A stretch of DNA of 64,000 nucleotides from a phage. The notes below the pieces were generated by a model. That model saw only the letters and a program-made list of their open reading frames with translations, was not told the DNA's origin and did not search any database. This document shows positions 5,258 to 59,363 of this stretch, one piece after another. Position numbers and translations under genes: made by a program. Location of the stretch: NCBI GenBank assembly GCA_012441205.1, contig GCA_012441205.1_4705.1; one strand, given 5' to 3'. The stretch's first letter is position 1; the number at the start of each line of letters is the position of its first letter.

Positions 5258-5313
5258 AAGGTAACGTTATACGTCGCCTTCATGACTGTCATCATGAAGG
5301 TAATATAGTCCTG
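5258..5313 (-). promoter_or_regulatory. tandem promoter-like motifs (AAGGTAACGTTATACGTC and AAGGTAATATAGTC on + strand; minus strand reads ...TATATTACCTT)
   Basis: Same motif family recurs at 18418, 30976-31038 and 59181, each just upstream of a minus-strand gene block. Confidence 0.45.
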
Positions 5314-18392: not shown

Positions 18393-18417
18393 GATTGAAA
18401 TCTCGCTGGCTTACTTC

Positions 18418-18438
18418 ACTTAAGTAATATAGCCGTGA
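18418..18438 (-). promoter_or_regulatory. promoter-like motif (TTAAGTAATATAGCCGTGAAA on + strand; TATATTAC core on minus strand)
   Basis: About 30 bp upstream of minus-strand gene 17736..18392; same family as 5298, 31018, 59181. Confidence 0.45.
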
Positions 18439-30890: not shown

Positions 30891-31717
30891 TTAAAAAGTT
30901 CCTCTGTTTCACGTTAATTAAACAACGTATTGATTTCTATTTGACAGAATACGAACATCGTACGTATCTATCACTTAGGTAACGCTTACGCGTCGCGTTC
31001 ATGATACCATGCATCATGAAGGTAATATAGCCGTGAAAGGATTTGTGTTAACGCAAGGGTTTTGTTTGTTTTTTAAGAAGGGATGGATTTAGAAGAGGTG
31101 TTTCAAGGAAGGTAAACGAGAATAGGTATTTTGATTTAAGTAAGATGTTATCTGTATCCGTTAGAAGTGTATTGTCTAAGTTATCTTGTTTATCTTAGGT
31201 TTAATCGTTTTTATCTTGGTATGTTTAAGTTGTTTTTATTTAACTGTTAAAATGCTTATCTTCAAAACAATGGATAACATGTGTTTACTACGCTCGTTGA
31301 GTTATAACTCAACGGTAACACATGTCATCTGTGCATTACACTACGTTACATGCTAGTTAAATCGGATAACTCAAAAAAACATTTGTGATACTCTTCTTCA
31401 CGTTGTTCATCAGAGTATCTCGTCTATACTCATTGCATTCGTATACGACATAACCGTTACACGCTAACGCTACGCTTATAGCTTGATAACTCTAAGGATA
31501 AAAACATAAACTCGCTTCGCTCGTTTAGTTTTTCTTTTTCTTAGAGTTATCCTGTTGCTCGTCTCTAAAGGACTTCGCTCCTCCCCCGTCCCCCGAAGGG
31601 GCCGAGGTCGTGGAAATTTTACTTTCCAAATACATTTACAACATCTGTAAACTTTTACTCCAGGTACTTAATCTTATCATTAGAAATTATAAAAGAGAAA
31701 ATAAACACAAACATAAA
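30891..31717. other. AT-rich ORF-free region with direct and inverted repeats (candidate origin / promoter cluster / ncRNA locus)
   Basis: About 830 bp with no ORF of 60 aa or more; five TTATCT(T/G) repeats (31150-31260), GGATAAC/GAGTTATC repeats, palindrome CGTTGAGTTATAACTCAACG; no tRNA-like T-loop seen. Confidence 0.5.
30976..31038 (-). promoter_or_regulatory. tandem promoter-like motifs (TTAGGTAACGCTTACGCGTC and GAAGGTAATATAGCCGTGAAA on + strand)
   Basis: Minus strand reads CACGGCTATATTACCTTC; 90-130 bp upstream of minus gene 30108..30890. Confidence 0.45.
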
Positions 31718-49831: not shown

Positions 49832-52741
49832 ATGAACGATATAAATAAAGGGCGCGTCGCCCTCGAACGTCAAATGAGCAATAATGACGTTGCGAAGGCA
49901 CTCATGAACAAATTTGTCGCTCCTGCTCCGCAGTCACGTCTTTATAATACACGTGATGCGGAAGGAGCGAACGGTCGTTTCGGGTTAGTTGTTCCCGACC
50001 AAATGACGATGAACACGGTTACGCGTGCTACCGCGACAAACATCGAGGATAATAAAAACATCCTCGAGCTGTTCCCTGAACTTAAACGCGTGATGCAGAT
50101 CTATGTTGCCGCGTTGACGAACCCTAACGATCTTAAGACGGTCGAGATGTTTATCGACAGCGAAGATTTCCCCGGCAGAGTCGCAGAAATCGTTCAGCCG
50201 ATGATCGATACCATCGACACGCATTTTAAGAATATCTATAAAATAAAGACGCTTATCCCTCGTATCATCGAAGACGTCTTCTTTATCAAGGGCAGTTATA
50301 ACTTCGTTGTTCTGCCGGAAAGCACGCTCGACCGCGCCATTAATGGTAACGGTCAACTGAAACTTGAAGAATACGGATTTAAAGACAACCATTTTGCAAG
50401 TTGGGGGCTTCTAGGTAACGACAGTCGCAAACGCCACGAAAATCAATTACCTGCGACGGTTTCGATGGAAGATTATTTCTCGGGTGTTAATGAAACCATA
50501 CCGTACGATCCTGTTGTTCGCATAGACAGCATCAAGTTTACCAATACCCTGCTTCGCGATAAGGACGGTAAATTCATTGAAGCGAAGATCGATATTCCGG
50601 ATATGGTTACGGTTGTCGATAACCCAGACATCCTCCGCATGCCTATTCTGCATCAACGTCGAGCAGCGACAGCAGTGCAGCGTGCGTTACGCGCAAACAC
50701 GTTAGGAGGTAGTGGTTTGGTAACGCTGTCAGGCGATCCGACCCTAACCGCTAACCGACGTGAGCTGTCGCAAGAACAGGTTAACGAGATCTGGAATAAG
50801 CTCAACATCCAGCGCCACACCAAGGTATCGCCCGTTTACGCGCTGGCAACCCCAGATACGCTTGATCGTCAAAGCGTTGGCCATCCTGGCGTGATGCATG
50901 TACCACCTGAGGCATTAGAACCCGTACATGCGCCCGGTGATCCTGAGAACCATATCGGGTATTTGGTTCAGTTGGATGAGTTTGGTTATCCAGTACGTTT
51001 GGTTGAAGATGCGGCGTATTACAAGCAGTTGGAAGGTCGGTTGTCGAAGATCACCGCAGATATCGCAGGTACGTCAAGCAACGGCATGGCGAGCGAGATG
51101 ATTGGTGCAGCCAAGAACATGATCCAAGGTACGTCATGTAATCAGGTAGACATGTCGGCCTTCGTATCATCGTACGAATCGCTGATGCAACGTTACATTG
51201 TCGAACGTATCGTTAACGGTTATCTTGGCAGTGCGGTGGAGATCGGTGCGACATCATCGTTTTATCTGTCGATGCTTGCTCGTAGCCTCGCTCACAAGCA
51301 GACCCGTGTTTTGTTTATTCCTCGAGAGATGGTGACTTACATCGCCTATGAATACAACAAATACGGTATCGGTCGTTCGCTGCTTGAAAGTACGAAGATG
51401 ATCTCATCGCAACGAGCCATGCTCATGGTTCAAGAACTGATGGCGAAAATCAAAAGTTCGTTGAACTATACGACGCTAAGCGTAATGCTTGAAGACACCG
51501 ACAGAAACCCGGTCGATACCGTCGAACAAGCACTGCATAGTTTCGCTCGTGTCTACCAGTCTGGTTTCCCGTTGGGTGAAACTAACCCGATGGATATCAT
51601 CAACGCGTACGAACGAAGCTCGATTAGATTGAAGGTTGAGGGGAATAACCCACGCTTCCCGAAATTGAATACAGACGTCAGTGTTGAGCAGCGTAACTAT
51701 CAGTCTCCTGATAATGAGCTGATGGATCGTTACCGTCGTGACCATTTCATGGGCTTGGGTGTGTCTCCGGAGATTATCGATACTTCCTACCAATCTGAAT
51801 TCGCAGCTTCTGTGATTACAGCTAACGCGATGCAAGAGAAACAGTTCACGGTTTGTCGTGAGGTGATCACGAATGGGTTATCGGACCACATCAAGAAATA
51901 TACGGCATACAGTCCCGTGTTGTTGACGTCGTTACGAAACACGGTTCGTGCGAACATGTCTAAGCTTTCCCAGGCACAATTGAAGCAGCTTTTTGGTAGC
52001 GATTTCGAAAACGGTGTTATCCGTAACGTTAACGCCTATCAGGAGATTGACGACCAATCAGCAACAATGGATCTGGATTACACTAAACCAGAAGTCCAGG
52101 AAGTTATTGCCGATGCTTATGTGTCCATGTTCTTAAACAGCCTGCGTGTGCGTTTACCGGATAGCAATGCCCGTCGCCTTGAAGATCAGGTACGTGAATA
52201 TAATCAGTACAAGGAAGCGATTACTGCGCAACTTGATGATTATTTAACGCCTGATTACGTCATGGGTCTGGGTGGGGTTGATGAAACAACGCTGCAGATG
52301 ATCCGCGCATGCATTATTGGTACCGCGATGCGTACGTGGGCAAAAGAGAACAACTTCAATCAGGAGCTGGCTGATCTCTTCAGTCTTGACGATAAGAAGA
52401 ATGCCGTGCAAGATTGGAAACGTATGTCCATGGAACATATTGAAGTCATGGGTAAATGCATGGGTGATTTTGCATTGTATATTCAGAATCTGACGAAGAA
52501 GATTGAAGAGAAGATGGGAGCTCAAGCACAGGACGGTAGCGTTTCATCTGATGGTTCGTGGTCATCCGATTCAAGTAGCGATACCGGTTCTTCTGATGAC
52601 TTCGGTGGCGGTGACGATTTCGGAGATACCGATTTCGATACCGAAACGATGGAGGAAACCTCAACAGAAGAAACAACCACATCTGAGGAAACGACGACCG
52701 ACACAACGTCAGAAGACGACACTTCAGGTGACATTGTCTAA
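49832..52741 (+). CDS. large hypothetical protein (969 aa) with extremely acidic Ser/Asp/Thr/Glu-rich C-terminal tail
   Basis: AAGGAG 9 nt upstream of ATG; last ~70 aa are DGSVSSDGSWSSDSSSDTGSSDDFGGGDDFGDTDFDTETMEETSTEETTTSEETTTDTTSEDDTSGDIV. Confidence 0.6.
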   Translation: MNDINKGRVALERQMSNNDVAKALMNKFVAPAPQSRLYNTRDAEGANGRFGLVVPDQMTMNTVTRATATNIEDNKNILELFPELKRVMQIYVAALTNPNDLKTVEMFIDSEDFPGRVAEIVQPMIDTIDTHFKNIYKIKTLIPRIIEDVFFIKGSYNFVVLPESTLDRAINGNGQLKLEEYGFKDNHFASWGLLGNDSRKRHENQLPATVSMEDYFSGVNETIPYDPVVRIDSIKFTNTLLRDKDGKFIEAKIDIPDMVTVVDNPDILRMPILHQRRAATAVQRALRANTLGGSGLVTLSGDPTLTANRRELSQEQVNEIWNKLNIQRHTKVSPVYALATPDTLDRQSVGHPGVMHVPPEALEPVHAPGDPENHIGYLVQLDEFGYPVRLVEDAAYYKQLEGRLSKITADIAGTSSNGMASEMIGAAKNMIQGTSCNQVDMSAFVSSYESLMQRYIVERIVNGYLGSAVEIGATSSFYLSMLARSLAHKQTRVLFIPREMVTYIAYEYNKYGIGRSLLESTKMISSQRAMLMVQELMAKIKSSLNYTTLSVMLEDTDRNPVDTVEQALHSFARVYQSGFPLGETNPMDIINAYERSSIRLKVEGNNPRFPKLNTDVSVEQRNYQSPDNELMDRYRRDHFMGLGVSPEIIDTSYQSEFAASVITANAMQEKQFTVCREVITNGLSDHIKKYTAYSPVLLTSLRNTVRANMSKLSQAQLKQLFGSDFENGVIRNVNAYQEIDDQSATMDLDYTKPEVQEVIADAYVSMFLNSLRVRLPDSNARRLEDQVREYNQYKEAITAQLDDYLTPDYVMGLGGVDETTLQMIRACIIGTAMRTWAKENNFNQELADLFSLDDKKNAVQDWKRMSMEHIEVMGKCMGDFALYIQNLTKKIEEKMGAQAQDGSVSSDGSWSSDSSSDTGSSDDFGGGDDFGDTDFDTETMEETSTEETTTSEETTTDTTSEDDTSGDIV

Positions 52742-52771
52742 ACGGATGTAAAAAAAATAACACATAGTTAA

Positions 52772-52806
52772 CCTTCTCCCCAACCCGATGAGGGAAGGGG
52801 AGAAGG
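52772..52806. terminator. nested hairpin element between convergent genes
   Basis: CCTTCTCCCC-aa-CCCgatgaGGG-aa-GGGGAGAAGG. Confidence 0.6.
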
Positions 52807-52826
52807 GCTATGCGCTATTTAATTTA

Positions 52827-53099
52827 TTACGAGGTTAACCACGATTCAATTGTGGTGAGTTTGCTTCTCAGTACGCGCCAACTAGGGTGTGGTGGGATCA
52901 CAGCGCCTTTGTCGATTACGGTTAACTGAACCTGGTACTTCTGCTGCATACGCGCTACCGTGTCGCTTATCGAGAGGAAAAGCTGGTAACGTTCATATGC
53001 CGTCAGTTCACTGTCCTGTTGAACTGCGTTGGCCGCTAACGTAATTTCGCGTAAGTCCTTTGCATCCACAGAGACGGTAATGAGTTTATATTGACTCAT
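52827..53099 (-). CDS. hypothetical small protein
   Basis: 90-aa ORF at the 3' end of the 59.2-52.8 kb minus-strand block. Confidence 0.45.
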   Translation of the reverse strand: MSQYKLITVSVDAKDLREITLAANAVQQDSELTAYERYQLFLSISDTVARMQQKYQVQLTVIDKGAVIPPHPSWRVLRSKLTTIESWLTS

Positions 53100-53160
53100 A
53101 CGGTTTCCTTATCAACTAGGGTATTGCAAATACAATACCCACCGTCGGACGATAAGTTAA

Positions 53161-55719
53161 TTACTGCTCTTCACGTTCCAGCAGATACTCGGAAGCGGTA
53201 ATACCGTTTACCGTACGTACTGCTTTCAGACGAGTATCATCGCTCAGAATTACAGTAACAGATTGCAGACCTTTTACTTTGGTTTCGAAGGTCTTGAACA
53301 CCTGATCCAGCATACGAGCAATGCTTGGGTTGGTTGCAGCCGATGCGTGGGTGTAACCGCTTTGGTTCAGCTTCAGAATCTTGGCGTTGGTCGGTACGCG
53401 AACAACAACATGCGGACGCATCGCGAACACGCTATGATTAAACCAGTAAGCATCGTTGCTATCTTCGTCGGTAACGATGTCTGGATTAACACGCATATCC
53501 TCGACAGCCGCATCCGCCAAACGACGTTCGATTTCATCGGCGTCCAGAGAGCCATCTTTCTCCAGTTCTGCACGATACTCACTCATGGCAACCAGATGAC
53601 GTTCACGATTCGCTGCGGATTTTTCGTGAGCGGCTTTCAGGTAGTCATGCATGTTGTACAGTTCTGCCATGGAAAGACGAATGTTCCACTGACCTTCGCC
53701 GTCACGATTGCAGTAGAGACACTTCAGCATGTTGACCCAGGTATAGTAGCAATTGGAGAATTCATCTTCAATGAACTTCTGGTCCATTTTAAGATCGTGA
53801 ATCAGCCAACCGGACAGTTCTCCGATATCATCAACGAAGCTAGAGATGGTGGTTTCAGAGAAGTTCTTCGGTACGATACGTTTGATCAGCTTATTGACGT
53901 CTTTGGTCATGCTATCGTTCAGGAAATGCCAGATACGCAGAGGAATAACATCTCGATACTGTTGCATGATCTGACGATAAGCTTTGATATCGTCGCTACG
54001 ACCTTTATCAATAGACAACGCATCCAGGAATTCATGGATTGCATCCAGCTCTTTGTCGGTATAGGTTCCCAGATAGGAATTGACGGTGGCAAGGAATGCT
54101 AATGCGTCGTTTTGGTTGACGTCGGTGTTGGTCTGCTGAATGATTGCCACTGAAGCTTTGGTTTCAGCATCCTCAACGCTTGACGCTGCGATTGCGTCGG
54201 TGACGGTAAACAGTTTCATTTCGCGCTGCTCACCGACAACGATTGGCTCACGTTGAACCGGTTTGTTAAGACTAACACGAACAACTTCTGCTTGCGCGAT
54301 ACGATCCAGTTTTGCCATTTCCTGCTCTGCCATACGACGAGCGGTTGGATCTGATTCAAGTTCGATGTATTCCACTTCTTCCTCCGTGAGGGATGTAATG
54401 TCAACAATGGTTTCATGAAGAATTCCGTTTTCGTCGATACGTGCTCGACGAGCGAAGTGCCTGAAGTCATACAACGTCGGCCAACGACTATTAGGTGCAA
54501 AGTCTTTGGCTTTCAGACGCATCTGCATAAATTCTTCATGTTGAACAACACGACCGTAACGCTTAGCATCTTCGGTCGCATCAATTGGATTAACGGTCTT
54601 TGTTACCGTAGCAGAACGAGCCGTACGAACGGGTTCCGGTTTCACCTGCGCAGGTTCAGGTTGAACGGGTTTCTGCTGCCCAGCCTTAACATGCCATTCT
54701 GGCTCTTCGTACTGTTCAGCAAACTGTTCAGCCGCTGCAAAGATATCGTTGATACCACCAATATCTCCTTCAGGATTTGTCGAGTAAATCCGTGGTTGTG
54801 GTGCCTCGTAACGCGGCGCTGTAGTAGCAGGCACCTCATCAACGATAGGATCGTCATCACCAACATCATACAAACGGTTGAACGCACAATCCTTCGAATC
54901 AATGTACGATGGCGCTTGTGGTTGGACAACCGTCGGCCGAGGTTGTGCACCGTATCCTGGTGTTGTTGGAGCCATGCCGCGCATAACTGCCGGACTAGGT
55001 TGGTATTGCGGTTGCGGATAGGTTCCACCATACATAGCGTACGCAGGCTGTTGTGGTTGACCATACCCGTTGCTAACCATCGCGCTTGCTTGCGGCCCAC
55101 GATAAGTCATCCCCATCTGCATCACCTGCTGCTTCAAACCACGTGACTTCTGAGCGATTTGCGCTAGGCTTCCGCTTTTATTCAGCTGCGTGTACTTATT
55201 CGCGGCTTCCGGGTTAATGCGTGATAATTCGATCGCGCGATAATATTCCGGGTACTGATTCGGTTCAAAGAGCCACGTTACAAGGTGATACAGCGCAACT
55301 GTGCTCACAGCAGCAGAGACGATCTGGTCGTCGGACGCGTTCTGCGGCATCGGGTTGATGTAAGAGAATACGTTCCAACAACAGTCTTCAACAAGCGATT
55401 CCATCATCATATCGTTATTGGTATAACGTGCGACGAACTCGGTTTGTATTTTGTCTTGCTGAGCGAAGTCTTTCAGGACATTAAAGATGGCTTGACGGAT
55501 TTTGACGATCGTCGCTTCTTGGGTGATGAAGTTATAGTTCTGCTGATATGAGGGTTGTTGGTATTGTGGTGGTTGATAGGCGTTATTCGGGTATGCGCCG
55601 TACGGAGATTGCTGATACTGTTGCTGACGAACCTGTTCAGCCGCATAATTAACCGTGCTCGTATAAGGGTTTTCGCTATAACCCATTTGTTGATACATGT
55701 TGTTACTGCCATTATACAT
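53161..55719 (-). CDS. 852-aa protein with prion-like Q/Y/P/G-rich low-complexity regions
   Basis: N-terminal ~60 aa (YQQMGY ... QQQYQQSPYGAYPNNAYQPPQYQQPSYQQNYN) and a second stretch (GYGQPQQPAYAMYGGTYPQPQYQPSP...); AAGGA upstream of ATG. Confidence 0.6.
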   Translation of the reverse strand: MYNGSNNMYQQMGYSENPYTSTVNYAAEQVRQQQYQQSPYGAYPNNAYQPPQYQQPSYQQNYNFITQEATIVKIRQAIFNVLKDFAQQDKIQTEFVARYTNNDMMMESLVEDCCWNVFSYINPMPQNASDDQIVSAAVSTVALYHLVTWLFEPNQYPEYYRAIELSRINPEAANKYTQLNKSGSLAQIAQKSRGLKQQVMQMGMTYRGPQASAMVSNGYGQPQQPAYAMYGGTYPQPQYQPSPAVMRGMAPTTPGYGAQPRPTVVQPQAPSYIDSKDCAFNRLYDVGDDDPIVDEVPATTAPRYEAPQPRIYSTNPEGDIGGINDIFAAAEQFAEQYEEPEWHVKAGQQKPVQPEPAQVKPEPVRTARSATVTKTVNPIDATEDAKRYGRVVQHEEFMQMRLKAKDFAPNSRWPTLYDFRHFARRARIDENGILHETIVDITSLTEEEVEYIELESDPTARRMAEQEMAKLDRIAQAEVVRVSLNKPVQREPIVVGEQREMKLFTVTDAIAASSVEDAETKASVAIIQQTNTDVNQNDALAFLATVNSYLGTYTDKELDAIHEFLDALSIDKGRSDDIKAYRQIMQQYRDVIPLRIWHFLNDSMTKDVNKLIKRIVPKNFSETTISSFVDDIGELSGWLIHDLKMDQKFIEDEFSNCYYTWVNMLKCLYCNRDGEGQWNIRLSMAELYNMHDYLKAAHEKSAANRERHLVAMSEYRAELEKDGSLDADEIERRLADAAVEDMRVNPDIVTDEDSNDAYWFNHSVFAMRPHVVVRVPTNAKILKLNQSGYTHASAATNPSIARMLDQVFKTFETKVKGLQSVTVILSDDTRLKAVRTVNGITASEYLLEREEQ

Positions 55720-55753
55720 TTCTTACGATCCTTTTTATTTATTCGGTTATGTG

Positions 55754-57553
55754 TCAATCGATTATGTCGTGATCGTTAATTTCTACAATTTCTTCATCGA
55801 ATCGACCGACGTCTTTCTTCAAGCCTGCATTGGTTGCTGCAACGTCATTTGCAATTTGTGGGGTAATGATTAACCGACCGCGCTCATCGATAGGTGCGTA
55901 CATACTGAACTTCTGACGTCCGGTTGGTTCGGAGTGTGGAAGATTCAGATAGCTTGCACAGAACGGGATGGAACCACTAACCAAACGACTCTCGTCAGCC
56001 AATGCAGCACCGCCTGCGTTTTGGCTCTGGAGAACAACATGCGTGCTCACTTTGAACAGCATGCAATCACCCGGTGACTGAATCGATGTTGCCACTTTCT
56101 CACGTTTATCACGATTGCTCTGGATATTGAGAATCGCTTCCGTTGCAACTTGATTTCGCAACGCCTTCTGTACATCACGATTGGTCATCTCTTTACGGTT
56201 GTTCTGTCGTTTACCACGTTCTGTGGTTTTAAGATGGAACCCCAGTTTAAAGATGCTCTTACGCACATCCTCCATGACATATTCCAACACCATCAATTCC
56301 TTACCGAACATCGTCGTGGTATCAACACGACTCATTTCGATAGTGACATTGTCAATCAGATACGCCATAAATTCGTAGAAGTCGTCGCAAGGAATATTTT
56401 CCTGTTTGAACTTCTTCTGTTGAATTTCATCAACGTAAAGATCGAGACTGTCGATGTGGTGGTTTACATCACGCAACAAACGCGCATCCGCGTTGTTGTT
56501 ATTAAAGATAATCAAACCGAGTAATGTACGCCAATGGTCTGGCGCATTCGCGAACTCTTCAACCGGATAGTCTTCCGGAAAACGATCGTAATAACGGTCG
56601 ATGAGATACAAGAATGCACCGACAAGGCCAAGAACAATACGTTCCGTGCCTCCACGTCTTACTGCAATTTGAATATCAGGATGTTTGTAACGTACAGCGC
56701 TAGCGCTACGGCTTTTACCGCTTTTGCTGATACTAAAACCTTTAGGAATAACCCCCATGGTGCGATAGATTACCCATTGGTCACGCGGAAAATCACGTTC
56801 AGCAAGGTTCCGTCCGGTTACGGCTTCGACACCTGCAAAACGTCGGAAACACTCACCCACCCCGTACTTCGCAAAGAGATAGTGACCCAGTGTGGTTACG
56901 CTGGTGTGGTTGATGTTGTCACCGTTCACTTTACTTTGTTTGGTAAGATGATAGATTTGTGACCAGGGTAATGACAGGTAATGACGATAATCGATACCGG
57001 TCGGTGTATCATTGCTCAGGAACTGATACGGTGTACGTTTAACCGTGATTTTGTCACGCGGAAGCATGATGAACGCCATGTCTTTCGTGTAACTGATTAC
57101 CGGGTCAGCGAGCACTGCACTGAGAATGAAGTTCGCACCACGTAGACGCATTTTACCACCCTGACCTACCGCGGGTAATAGGAGAGGATGTCGGATAATG
57201 CAGTAGTCCTTTCCGGGTTCACGACGGTCACCTGATTCCATCGCTCCGTACCAGCGGAATTCTAGCATCACCATAAACACATCGGATGGCGCAAGGTCGA
57301 AGGTCAGCTTACCGCTATCCTTCCCTTTGGTTTTCTTTCCTCCGCTTAAGTAGTGGAACTGTTCGCGGGCCATACAGCGACGCAGGCCATGATACACCAG
57401 ATCCTTAGGTAAACTATCTTTGCTGTTCCGCCAAAGACGATCAACATAGGACTCAACATCTTGCATCTTATCGACGACGATGTTGCGTGCTATCTTCTCG
57501 TTCATCTTCGGTGCAAGCCCAGCGACAGCTTTGCAGAATCTAGGATCCATCAC
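55754..57553 (-). CDS. 599-aa hypothetical protein in putative early operon (worth testing as nuclear-shell/chimallin-like)
   Basis: Long ORF tightly linked to neighbours; no motif recognised. The chimallin idea is pure inference from size and operon context. Confidence 0.55.
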   Translation of the reverse strand: MMDPRFCKAVAGLAPKMNEKIARNIVVDKMQDVESYVDRLWRNSKDSLPKDLVYHGLRRCMAREQFHYLSGGKKTKGKDSGKLTFDLAPSDVFMVMLEFRWYGAMESGDRREPGKDYCIIRHPLLLPAVGQGGKMRLRGANFILSAVLADPVISYTKDMAFIMLPRDKITVKRTPYQFLSNDTPTGIDYRHYLSLPWSQIYHLTKQSKVNGDNINHTSVTTLGHYLFAKYGVGECFRRFAGVEAVTGRNLAERDFPRDQWVIYRTMGVIPKGFSISKSGKSRSASAVRYKHPDIQIAVRRGGTERIVLGLVGAFLYLIDRYYDRFPEDYPVEEFANAPDHWRTLLGLIIFNNNNADARLLRDVNHHIDSLDLYVDEIQQKKFKQENIPCDDFYEFMAYLIDNVTIEMSRVDTTTMFGKELMVLEYVMEDVRKSIFKLGFHLKTTERGKRQNNRKEMTNRDVQKALRNQVATEAILNIQSNRDKREKVATSIQSPGDCMLFKVSTHVVLQSQNAGGAALADESRLVSGSIPFCASYLNLPHSEPTGRQKFSMYAPIDERGRLIITPQIANDVAATNAGLKKDVGRFDEEIVEINDHDIID

Positions 57554-57589
57554 ACACTCCTTTCAGAAAGTTGCTTAAGCAGATTAAAG

Positions 57590-59032
57590 TTACTTTTTCG
57601 ATGACACTTTCTCAAGAATCTTGAAAAAGGTCATACCTATACCGACAACGGCCGCGGTTATGCTCGCAGCGGCTTTCCAAACATCGACGTTACGTTGACG
57701 TCGCGCTTCTTCCGCTTCACGTTGTCTTTTTGCCTCTTCATCACGTCGACGTATCTCAGCAGCAAACTCGTCGTGCTTACGTTTGGATTCTTCGTCTCGA
57801 CGACGAAGTTCAGCGACGAATTCTTCATGTTTGCGTTTAGCCTCGTCGTCACGACGTTTTAAATCAGCTTGATAATCTTCGTGTATTTGTCTACGTAGAT
57901 CATCTTGACGCTTCATTTCGGCTTGGTGTTGTTCCATCCTACGTTTTTGTTCGTCTTTAAGCTGATCGAGTTCGGCTTTATGTTGTTCATCACGCAGCTT
58001 TGCGTCGGCGCGATGCGCCTCATGCATCTGTGCGATAACTGCCTTGTGTTCATCCGCCATACGTCGCATTTCAGCCATCACCCCTTTAAGGGTTTCTTCT
58101 GATGCCTTACGTTCGTAGCTACGTTGGTCGAAATCATTTTTGTAGGCTTCTTTTTGGATGGGGTCGCGCCAATGCAATGCCGATTCACGTGTCGGAAAAA
58201 CATTGTACTTCCACATCTCTTTTTCCAAATCTTCGACCGGTACGAAGATGGAGTCATTATTCCCGAAGGTAACCAACATACCTGGCGCGCCTGCTCCATT
58301 CGTTGGTTTTATTTCGAACGCTTTCCCCAACACGTTAACCCATAAGCTATACGGATTATGAAAGTCGGGCGGCGTCCAATGGATAGTGAGTTGCGTTCCG
58401 AGAATCCGGAAACCCTCTGTTTTTCCCGTCAAGCTCCGCGCGCACGTTGCGATGTAGGGGTGATCAATCCCTTTCGTAACGTGGTCTGCGCTTTTGTATT
58501 CTCCTTTAACTTTTACGATTGCCACGTTGATTTGCGCGACATAAGCGGGTTGATTAAAGTTCAGCGTGTTGAGGTCAATTTGACATATCTCATCCAGCGT
58601 ATCGTACCAGTCTTGCTGGTCTAATAGACGCGGCATTTTCTCAGCGTTAACAATACGACGGATATGCGGTTTCCTTATCGCGTAACCTGTACCGTTTTTA
58701 ACACGGAGTATATCCCGACGTCTACCCGCGTAGACGAAGTTTCTGAATGCACCATTCGCATTAGATACGTCATGGCTGTCAACTATTACAGGACTACGAA
58801 ATTTTGAACGTCGTACGATCCTGAATGTATTGCCGTCCTCAACCCTACCAGGAATGTACTGGAACATATTGTCGGAGGTGATAACCAACACGGTATGGCC
58901 AGATTCATTAATACATGCCCATCCTAATTCCAGGTCATATAACGGTTCAGCATAACCGTCAATGCGATAAGCGTGCGTACCATCCCACGGTTCGAACGCG
59001 GTATCACATATTGGCATGGAGGGCATCGTCAA
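57590..59032 (-). CDS. tail-anchored protein: globular N-domain, K/R/E/D-rich coiled-coil with tandem repeats, C-terminal TM helix
   Basis: Repeats KRRDDEAKRKHEEFVAELRRRDEESKRKHDEFAAEIRRRDEEAKRQ then AAASITAAVVGIGMTFFKIL at the C-terminus. Confidence 0.6.
   Translation of the reverse strand: MTMPSMPICDTAFEPWDGTHAYRIDGYAEPLYDLELGWACINESGHTVLVITSDNMFQYIPGRVEDGNTFRIVRRSKFRSPVIVDSHDVSNANGAFRNFVYAGRRRDILRVKNGTGYAIRKPHIRRIVNAEKMPRLLDQQDWYDTLDEICQIDLNTLNFNQPAYVAQINVAIVKVKGEYKSADHVTKGIDHPYIATCARSLTGKTEGFRILGTQLTIHWTPPDFHNPYSLWVNVLGKAFEIKPTNGAGAPGMLVTFGNNDSIFVPVEDLEKEMWKYNVFPTRESALHWRDPIQKEAYKNDFDQRSYERKASEETLKGVMAEMRRMADEHKAVIAQMHEAHRADAKLRDEQHKAELDQLKDEQKRRMEQHQAEMKRQDDLRRQIHEDYQADLKRRDDEAKRKHEEFVAELRRRDEESKRKHDEFAAEIRRRDEEAKRQREAEEARRQRNVDVWKAAASITAAVVGIGMTFFKILEKVSSKK
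57710..57880 (-). repeat. in-frame ~54-bp tandem repeat inside CDS 57590..59032
   Basis: DNA repeats encode the ~18-aa RRRDEE(S/A)KRKH(D/E)EF(V/A)AE(L/I) unit about 2.5 times. Confidence 0.5.
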
Positions 59033-59180
59033 CCTCCATCAGATTGAAAACTATCACGCATAATACATTTCCCTTTTCTTGTTCTTATCGAGCCGACAGC
59101 CGACGGTTTCAGCATCGTTCCTAGCGCGAGAACGACCTTACGTGTTGTCTATGCCTTATTCATCGCAGGCGTCTGTCACC

Positions 59181-59200
59181 TAGGTAATGTAAGCGTCAAA
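59181..59200 (-). promoter_or_regulatory. promoter-like motif (TAGGTAATGTAAGCGTCAAA on + strand)
   Basis: Same family as 5258, 18418 and 30976; about 150 bp upstream of minus gene 57590..59032 and downstream of the hairpin that follows the 740-aa gene. Confidence 0.4.
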
Positions 59201-59234
59201 TTTTTTCTATTCGCAACAATAAACGGCATAGAAA

Positions 59235-59264
59235 CCTCCCCCAACCCTTGCGGGCTGAGGGAGG
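59235..59264. terminator. nested hairpin element downstream of the 740-aa virion protein gene
   Basis: CCTCCCcc-aa-CCCttgcGGG-ctga-GGGAGG; a second small hairpin CCGGA-tgaatg-TCCGG lies at about 59285. Confidence 0.55.
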
Positions 59265-59363
59265 CTGACTTATGTATCACGGTGCCGGATGAATGTCCGG
59301 TGCAATGAAACCATCCGCAACGTTGTCGTCAAGAATATCATCCAACGAAGCAGCTACGGTAGT

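Follow-up and report, generated by a model that had tools for sequence, protein, structure and literature searches.

Positions 52,827 to 59,200 of a 64,000-nucleotide stretch of phage DNA (GenBank assembly GCA_012441205.1, contig GCA_012441205.1_4705.1; the whole stretch is called the window below) carry a tight block of four minus-strand genes. These genes very probably represent a conserved module of the Chimalliviridae, in which the core gene cg35, a beta-like subunit of the non-virion RNA polymerase (nvRNAP) and a divergent ortholog of the protein JADA are followed by a small clade-specific gene, the whole forming one unit of about 6.4 kb that runs from an early promoter of the type found at the chimallin gene (chmA), at 59191, to a nested bidirectional terminator near 52760. 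The literature already catalogues this module, which was not discovered here; the present analysis identified its genes in the window and followed their conservation. The 6.6-kb region that contains the block is 98.3% identical to Escherichia phage vB_EcoM_Goslar (Goslar), an established nucleus-forming jumbo phage of the Chimalliviridae, which bears out the guess of a preliminary description, made from the letters of the sequence, that the DNA might come from a phage of this kind. The four open reading frames (ORFs) listed in that description are present, with slightly corrected starts for the first two, and correspond to Goslar gp040, gp039, gp038 and gp037.

The block is located between the major capsid gene gp041 (Pfam PhiKZ_MCP, E = 5e-218) on its upstream flank and a convergent portal gene on the opposite flank, designated portal gp36 in cryo-EM work on Goslar (bioRxiv 10.64898/2026.04.21.720040), and lies inside structural core block 5. 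The order of the genes is kept across chimalliviruses: the capsid gene, a protein of ~330-480 aa, the nvRNAP subunit, a protein of ~650-850 aa and a small protein. The position of cg35 between the major capsid and nvRNAP beta-like subunit genes, and that of the gp038-type gene directly downstream of the nvRNAP subunit gene, were found in the window as well as in RAY, PhiKZ-type phages, RSF1, PhiPA3 and three related loci (L006, L007 and the more distant L008). A PhiKZ-type capsid gene was present on every examined contig. No match for the block was found in NCBIfam or Rfam, and its genes are not mentioned in the preprint on the constituents of early phage infection (EPI) vesicles, in the transposon mutagenesis preprint or in the Annual Review.

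The preliminary description had been unable to assign any of the products to a known family, an assessment that did not survive the searches, as the three larger proteins belong to the nvRNAP subunit, cg35 and JADA families. The 599-aa protein gp039 matches PDB 7OGP chain E (PHIKZ123) over residues 33-560 (E = 2.9e-40, 24% identity) and PHROG 2943 'polymerase' (E = 1.2e-119), and its homologs, detected by tblastn in 235 jumbo phages, are annotated as the nvRNAP beta subunit. It is the product of core gene cg36 (Prichard 2023 Table S3, PMC10299810), it is labelled nvRNAP in the mass spectrometry (MS) table of Goslar (bioRxiv 10.64898/2026.04.21.720040), and in RAY the orthologous protein gp002 is found in the phage nucleus. 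The likeness to PhiKZ gp123 (PDB 7OGP, 7OGR, 8QUE, 9RJS) covers full-length homology, genomic position and the split-subunit organisation of the polymerase; gp039 differs in being ~55 aa longer. On the sequence level, at which the Goslar enzyme is known, gp039 is the nvRNAP beta-like subunit orthologous to PhiKZ gp123. ATG 57550 is the probable start codon, which yields a protein of 598 aa.

The gene for the 852-aa protein gp038 begins 34 nt past the gp039 stop on the same strand. The position directly downstream of the nvRNAP subunit gene is the defining position of JADA, the name given to Pa36 gp316, an ortholog of PhiKZ gp124 (Muralidharan et al., Mol Cell 2026, PMC12931631). JADA is essential, early-expressed, abundant at 10 min and chimallivirus-specific; it forms foci at EPI vesicles and activates Avs5. 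The C-terminal domain makes JADA a homodimer (PDB 9RP3), the N-domain is separate, and the linker is long and disordered (PMC12931631). With these proteins gp038 shares its position and direction behind the nvRNAP gene, the restriction to chimalliviruses and a layout of helical N-domain, long low-complexity linker and ~450-aa C-domain. When a profile of the Goslar clade (A4) was compared by hhalign with an independent profile made from RAY, RSF1 and PhiKZ (A5), the two aligned with 96.1% probability (E = 3e-9) over 61 co-linear columns. Both gp038 and the JADA family carry the core motif R-I/Y-W/Y-x-F-L ... T-x-x-V-N ... T-I-x-x-F-x-x-D-I-G-E/D-L as well as a C-terminal strand motif, and their C-terminal ends align by eye. 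In agreement with this, Goslar gp038 has been paired with RAY gp004 as a homolog (Prichard 2023 supplement 3, PMC10299810). A match of a wider profile (A3) to 9RP3 was discarded as evidence, since A3 includes a PhiKZ-type sequence and the match is circular. A database search based on the A3 alignment returned one new protein, P0005, and a search for related loci with the A5 profile returned RAY alone; by tblastn against phage genomes, Goslar was the single match of gp038. The Pfam match Cas9_C_2 fell below the curated cut-off and was dismissed as noise. We conclude that gp038 is a very divergent JADA ortholog, the link being weak by sequence alone. The identity to JADA is ~15-20%, invisible to phmmer, and gp038 is 131 aa longer; it carries an additional Q/Y/N-rich tract at its N-terminus, and its linker has about double the length. 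The dimer fold, Avs5 activation, essentiality and vesicle localisation are features of the Pa36 and PhiKZ proteins, and would extend to gp038 by analogy.

The layout of gp038 comprises a Q/Y/N-rich segment (residues 1-66; Q21 Y18 N14 P9 %), a helical N-domain (~67-205), a P/A/Q/G/Y-rich linker of ~195 aa (~206-400) and a C-terminal domain (~400-852). In the AlphaFold2 (AF2) model, residues 67-180 are helical (pLDDT 50-64), 190-400 have a pLDDT of 20-30 and 400-852 show mixed secondary structure. The prion-like low-complexity regions pointed out in the preliminary description are confirmed by composition. The low-complexity regions are Q/P/M-rich in PhiKZ gp124 and RAY gp4 and R/D-rich in RSF1, so the composition of the linker is not conserved in the family, although the presence of a linker is. 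The N-terminal Q/Y tract is absent from the intermediate relative P0005. As a side observation, the PhiPA3 ortholog of JADA (gene 140) is annotated with 261 aa and an overlapping antisense ORF, 141, covers the expected remainder (L011 8201-10307), which is probably a misannotation or a frameshift in that record.

The first gene product, gp040, belongs to cg35, which comprises Goslar gp040, PhiKZ gp122 and RAY gp001*, is unique to chimallin-encoding phages and has the listed function 'hypothetical' (Prichard 2023 Table S3, PMC10299810). By hhalign (A7 vs A8), the N-domain of gp040 matched that of RAY gp1, RSF1 ORF123 and PhiKZ gp122 with 97.0% probability (E = 8.3e-11) over 214 columns. An exhaustive phmmer search of 1.84 billion representatives yielded three true relatives and coiled-coil noise, and Goslar was the single match by tblastn against phage genomes. 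The start of gp040 is most likely ATG 59026 (478 aa) rather than TTG 59032, because GGAGG lies 6 nt upstream of the ATG while TTG 59032 abuts the GGAGG, and because Goslar and its relatives are annotated in this way.

The protein gp040 consists of a globular N-domain (~1-288), a highly charged helix (289-~447) and a hydrophobic C-terminal segment (453-471), followed by KK. AF2 predicted a single helix over 289-474, with a pLDDT of 70-90 over ~310-440; the N-domain, at pLDDT 22-58, was unusable. D/E/K/R residues make up 53% of the helix and 61% of its distal half, hydrophobic residues are few, and the helix resembles an ER/K single helix more than a classic coiled coil; this is an analogy with ER/K single alpha-helix spacers, not homology. 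The C-terminal segment (Kyte-Doolittle (KD) 1.76, 7 residues from the end) is the most hydrophobic window of the protein and its only candidate transmembrane segment, lying within the last ~30 residues. With one hydrophobic segment in the last 30 residues and a short basic tail, gp040 resembles the tail-anchored proteins of eukaryotes and bacteria. The preliminary description was right about this segment, and it overstated the repeats of the coiled coil: three degenerate peptide repeats of ~18 aa were found, and no DNA tandem repeat was found beneath the helix.

The other orthologs of cg35 (PhiKZ gp122, RAY gp001, PhiPA3 gp138, 201phi2-1 gp202) are like gp040 in the homology of the N-domain, the position of the gene and the sequence of a charged helix and then a hydrophobic C-terminus, the most hydrophobic 19-residue window lying 0-14 residues from the C-terminus in all seven orthologs. 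They differ in the charged helix, which is ~160 aa in the Goslar-type protein and ~40-80 in the others. Among close relatives (~85% identical; P0012-P0021), cg35 is 460, 478, 489 or 507 aa long owing to charged-helix indels of 11 and 18 residues, which preserve the helical phase; the variation maps to 57590-58160 in the window. In the comparison with L006, the C-terminal anchor region is 92-98% conserved. A tail with a KD of at least 1.75, thus transmembrane-like, was found in four of the seven orthologs (the Goslar-type, P0007, P0008 and RSF1 proteins). PhiPA3 gp138, which we verified as a cg35 ortholog, was recovered by ChmA and ChmB pulldowns and by ChmA miniTurboID (PMC10643120). In PhiKZ, both antisense oligomers against PhiKZ122 were scored '+', and knockdown of PhiKZ122 or PhiKZ124 by antisense oligomers caused a strong change in phage transcription at 30 min (PMC12571901). 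The proximity to the shell and the knockdown phenotype come from Pseudomonas-phage orthologs rather than from a Goslar-type protein, for which they may serve as a guide. Goslar-like cg35 proteins (P0018, P0019, P0022-P0024) also turned up in NCBI assemblies that bear the labels Salmonella enterica and E. coli O157, in some cases on ~244-kb contigs, and these bacterial isolate assemblies therefore contain whole Goslar-like phage genomes.

The last protein of the unit, gp037, is conserved within the Goslar-like clade: it is kept in L006 and L007 and, with 28% identity over 76 aa, in L008, and it has no similarity to the small genes at the same position in PhiKZ (gp125), RAY (gp5) and RSF1 (ORF120). 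A Pfam match to VPS51 lay below the curated cut-off and was rejected as noise. The genes of the block do not diverge at the same rate. Between the window and L006 (53161-59026), gp038 has ~80% nucleotide identity and parts of gp040 have 52-72%, as against ~93-95% for the flanking capsid and polymerase genes, so that gp038 and parts of gp040 diverge much faster than these neighbours.

The anatomy of the block is that of one transcription unit. The intergenic gaps are 34 to 61 nt, and neither a convincing internal terminator nor an internal promoter match was found in them. Upstream, the capsid gene ends in a terminator hairpin (minimum free energy of -36.2 kcal/mol, z = -5.1) whose stem differs in L006 by compensatory changes and which has an equivalent in L008; the block is therefore insulated from read-through of the capsid gene and has its own start signal. 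At the 3' end, the nested hairpin of the preliminary description is real (-42.3 kcal/mol, z = -9.84, 0 of 200 shuffles as good) and is kept in Goslar, L006 and L007, though it is larger than the 52772-52806 first given (Table 1).

The promoter-like motif pointed out in the preliminary description was confirmed, with TACATTACC on the minus strand at 59191-59183. To score this candidate, a weight matrix was trained on seven other sites with the candidate left out. The candidate reached 27.3 bits, compared with 4.2 bits for the best non-training position among the 128,000 positions of the window, and is far beyond chance. The exact string TATATTAC is weakly enriched in the window (6 vs 2 expected) and three of its six sites are inside genes, which is why the extended motif was used. 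A longer pattern, TAYATTACYTNNRTGA, common to three intergenic sites and the candidate, occurs 4 times vs 0 expected, always on the coding strand, but those four sites were themselves the source of the pattern, which makes the count circular. At two of the other sites (5307 and 31029), a near-identical inverted repeat (CTTCATGATG...CATGAAG) follows at the predicted 5' end of the transcript. A scan for sigma-70 sites returned fewer than expected by chance; it is irrelevant here, because the phage has its own polymerases.

The motif is of the same class as the promoter of chimallin. The region upstream of Goslar chmA, GAAAAAAATTTCAGGGTTATATTACCTAGGTGA, is nearly the same sequence as the operon promoter (31 of 45 positions identical, including TTA(T/C)ATTACCTAGGTGA). 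The transcription start site of chmA was mapped by Armbruster et al. from RNA-seq at 5 minutes post infection (mpi), and the sequence they display begins 91 nt upstream of the ATG (PMC10541120), that is, 11 nt before the chmA-promoter motif. Both promoters have an A/T-rich upstream tract, a core TAYATTAC and a downstream CTAGGTGA, and both are intergenic, on the coding strand and kept in relatives. The same motif lies upstream of the Goslar gp175 gene, whose product is the ortholog of the sigma-like factor of the nvRNAP (Prichard et al. 2023, PMC10299810). Early promoters of jumbo phages have been described as phage-specific, AT-rich conserved elements centred near -10 (PMC7598289), a general description that the operon motif fits. 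Across relatives with 80-89% identical proteins, the block TAGAAAAAAT(T/C)TGACGCTTACATTACCTAGGTGACAGA has T/C as its single substitution, and the sequence just upstream varies. It is invariant in L006, whose proteins are ~80% identical, and shows the one T/C difference in L007; in L008, where cg35 and JADA have ~35% protein identity, TACATTACCTAGGTGA occupies the corresponding site behind the capsid terminator and is preceded by a T-rich tract. The operon leader is longer than those at the other early-promoter sites (roughly 25 to 125 nt). Its promoter-proximal ~50 nt are ~93% identical in L006, dropping to ~70-80% near the start codon; neither an unusual secondary structure (z = 0.47) nor an Rfam match was found in it.

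Table 1. Features of the block and its surroundings (positions of the window).
Feature	Position	Strand	Basis or remark
gp040-type protein, 478 aa, cg35	57590..59026	-	hhalign; Prichard 2023 Table S3
gp039-type protein, 598-599 aa, nvRNAP beta-like subunit, cg36	55754..57553	-	PDB, PHROG, tblastn
gp038-type protein, 852 aa, divergent JADA ortholog (PhiKZ gp124 / Pa36 gp316)	53161..55719	-	position, hhalign, Prichard supplement 3
gp037-type small protein, 90 aa, last gene of the unit	52827..53099	-	conservation
Early-class (chmA-type) promoter block TAGAAAAAATTTGACGCTTACATTACCTAGGTGACAGA, core TACATTAC at 59191-59184	59172..59209	-	weight matrix, likeness to chmA, conservation
5' leader, ~145 nt, GGAGG 6 nt before ATG 59026	59027..59171	-	sequence
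Nested hairpin and U8, bidirectional terminator common to the block and the convergent portal gene	52750..52820		folding, conservation
Terminator of the upstream major capsid gene	59235..59265	-	folding, stem changes
Portal gene gp036	49832-52741	+	convergent with the block
Other chmA-class early promoter sites	5292-5307, 18416-18431, 31014-31029	-	motif match

The timing of the block is taken from PhiKZ, where peptide counts at 2.5, 5, 7.5 and 10 min are available (PMC12571901 supplement 4). The counts were 2/18/16/23 for gp124, 0/18/17/20 for gp123 and 0/8/8/10 for gp125 in the control, compared with 4/11/20/21, 0/4/10/21 and 0/5/8/9 under nvRNAP knockdown. The three proteins accumulated likewise under knockdown of ChmA or PicA; with the nvRNAP and PicA knockdowns they were somewhat slower at 5 min and reached control levels by 10 min (PMC12571901). 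Since gp123-gp125 accumulate despite the nvRNAP knockdown, they are early products of the virion polymerase. The homolog of gp124 in Churi is among the early non-virion proteins (PMC11849849). In Goslar, 175 of 249 genes are already expressed at 5 mpi (Armbruster et al., PMC10541120).

Several points weigh against the reading of the block as an early cg35-nvRNAP-JADA unit. The early timing of gp037-gp040 in a Goslar-type phage is carried over by analogy from the orthologs. At position 3 of its core the operon motif has C where T is commoner and where chmA has T; two other Goslar genes have the same variant in front of them. A TATG-containing block that could be a late promoter lies behind the capsid terminator and ahead of the early motif: TATGCCGT (59223-59230, minus strand), directly 3' of the terminator, contains the PhiKZ late-promoter core T(-3)ATG(+1) and is kept in L006 and the distant L008. 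In 201phi2-1, the promoter nearest the nvRNAP ortholog gp203 was classed as late, the nearest early motif lying ~5.5 kb upstream (PMC11512511). Given this late call and the conserved TATGCCGT, a second, late start may therefore exist upstream of the early one. As to the proteins, a Goslar-only profile of gp038 ranked 9RP3 first of 177,635 sequences, but with E = 1.3; phmmer of gp038 against the PDB gave no match, and the AF2 model, built on 5 sequences (mean pLDDT 37, pTM 0.27), was too poor to be compared with 9RP3. The tail of cg35 is clearly transmembrane-like in the Goslar-type protein, whereas it is amphipathic (KD 1.26-1.55) in RAY and also in PhiKZ and PhiPA3, the two lineages from which the experimental data on cg35 come. 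Finally, gp038 was detected in purified Goslar virions with 26 peptides, 28% coverage and ~25 copies per virion (2026 preprint, Table S4), a difference from JADA that fits less well with a purely non-virion early protein. In the same data set gp039 was at 0.14 copies per virion, gp037 was at trace level (0.8) and gp040 was not detected, while chimallin and PhuZ each reached >100 'copies', so carry-over would suffice to explain gp038.

These data could be read in terms of a late operon for morphogenesis that encodes components of the virion or factors for its assembly, as the location between the capsid and portal genes, the late-type promoter in 201phi2-1, the conserved TATGCCGT behind the capsid terminator and a copy number of gp038 comparable to the portal estimate of 16 might suggest. 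We regard this as highly improbable. One of the products is a subunit of the non-virion polymerase, the virion preparation that contains gp038 was contaminated by abundant non-virion proteins, and none of the block products is in the 28-protein atomic model. In addition, the PhiKZ orthologs appear by 2.5-5 min independently of the nvRNAP, the promoter is of the chmA early class, and a strong terminator separates the capsid gene from the block. Neither homology of the three larger products to virion structural components nor, in the orthologs, late-only expression, which the preliminary description had named as grounds for abandoning an early operon, was found, with the presence of gp038 in virion preparations as a caveat. 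It is less far-fetched, though still unlikely, that gp038 is synthesised early and also packaged, with some tens of copies being injected with the genome and present at the EPI vesicle before new synthesis. The MS estimate for gp038 is label-free, and its neighbour gp039 is 180-fold lower; among PhiKZ gp123-gp125, gp124 alone has peptides (2-4) at 2.5 min, and JADA forms foci at EPI vesicles. On the other side, abundant proteins of the cytoplasm and the nuclear shell contaminate the preparation, JADA ranks with the most abundant early proteins of PhiKZ and its carry-over is plausible, the Churi proteomics lists the homolog as non-virion, and the authors of the Goslar study did not flag gp038.

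The Q/Y/N/P-rich regions of gp038 could also drive phase separation, in which case the operon would encode a condensate or add a new component to the shell of the replication compartment. The prion-like composition of residues 1-66 and the ~195-aa linker speak for this, as do the recurrence of low-complexity N-terminal or linker regions in PhiKZ gp124 and RAY gp4 and the foci formed by JADA on infection. We find it quite improbable, as P0005, the closest intermediate relative, has no Q/Y tract, RSF1 has an R/D-rich linker in place of a Q/Y-rich one, JADA in purified form is a discrete homodimer whose linker is disordered, and the shell consists of ChmA, a protein encoded outside the block. The comparison with ChmA and PhuZ called for in the preliminary description likewise gave no match of that kind in Pfam, PHROG, NCBIfam or the PDB, and Goslar encodes both proteins elsewhere. 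Its proposal of an early operon for compartment components holds to the extent that the block is a single unit with an early-class promoter and that the JADA and cg35 orthologs are associated with the compartment; a relation to chimallin or PhuZ is not supported. Given the early promoter and the ortholog data, the description of the block as an early operon with compartment-associated products is therefore largely right.

If the block is the early cg35-nvRNAP-JADA unit that we favor, its mRNA would be made in the first minutes of infection, in parallel with that of chimallin. The protein gp039 would be one split beta/beta' piece that assembles into the non-virion polymerase, which would later transcribe late genes inside the phage nucleus. 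As a dimer via its C-terminal domain, gp038 would gather at the EPI vesicle and be needed for the phage transcription programme to progress. The C-terminal hydrophobic helix would hold gp040 at a membrane or amphipathic surface, and the long charged helix of variable length would project its globular N-domain toward the chimallin shell. We infer a role of gp040 as a tether or spacer, and likewise a direct functional coupling of gp038, gp039 and gp040. A more specific version, in which cg35 is a tail-anchored tether in the EPI vesicle or the inner membrane whose length-tunable ER/K-type stalk holds the N-domain at the nascent chimallin shell and which, with JADA and the polymerase subunit, couples vesicle-stage transcription to the hand-over of the genome into the nucleus, a few tens of JADA perhaps coming pre-made in the virion, is speculative and rather doubtful as a whole.

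In L008 (6327-6866), the conserved promoter element is followed by a 179-aa ORF with a GIY-YIG-like motif (YILRFPTGHFYIGSTGDFNRRRNKH), which is inserted behind the capsid gene and ahead of cg35; this ORF probably encodes a homing endonuclease and is absent from the window. In the Goslar record (168235-169645; L010 18235-19645), a group I intron and an HNH endonuclease gene are annotated directly downstream of the RNAP subunit gene that adjoins chmA.

The module touches two open questions in the biology of nucleus-forming phages, namely the passage from the vesicle to the nucleus and the switch from the virion to the non-virion polymerase. One chimallin-like early promoter joins a piece of the second polymerase, an essential vesicle protein sensed by Avs5 and a shell-proximal core protein. 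The presence of gp038 in virion preparations, the length-variable charged stalk and anchor of cg35, the prion-like N-terminus and extreme divergence of gp038 and the chimallin-like promoter are leads that are possibly new. The Goslar-type phage provides a version of the module that is tractable in E. coli, with the transmembrane-like anchor and long stalk of cg35 and a possible virion-borne pool of JADA as handles, and its very divergent JADA could be used to test the breadth of trigger recognition by Avs5.

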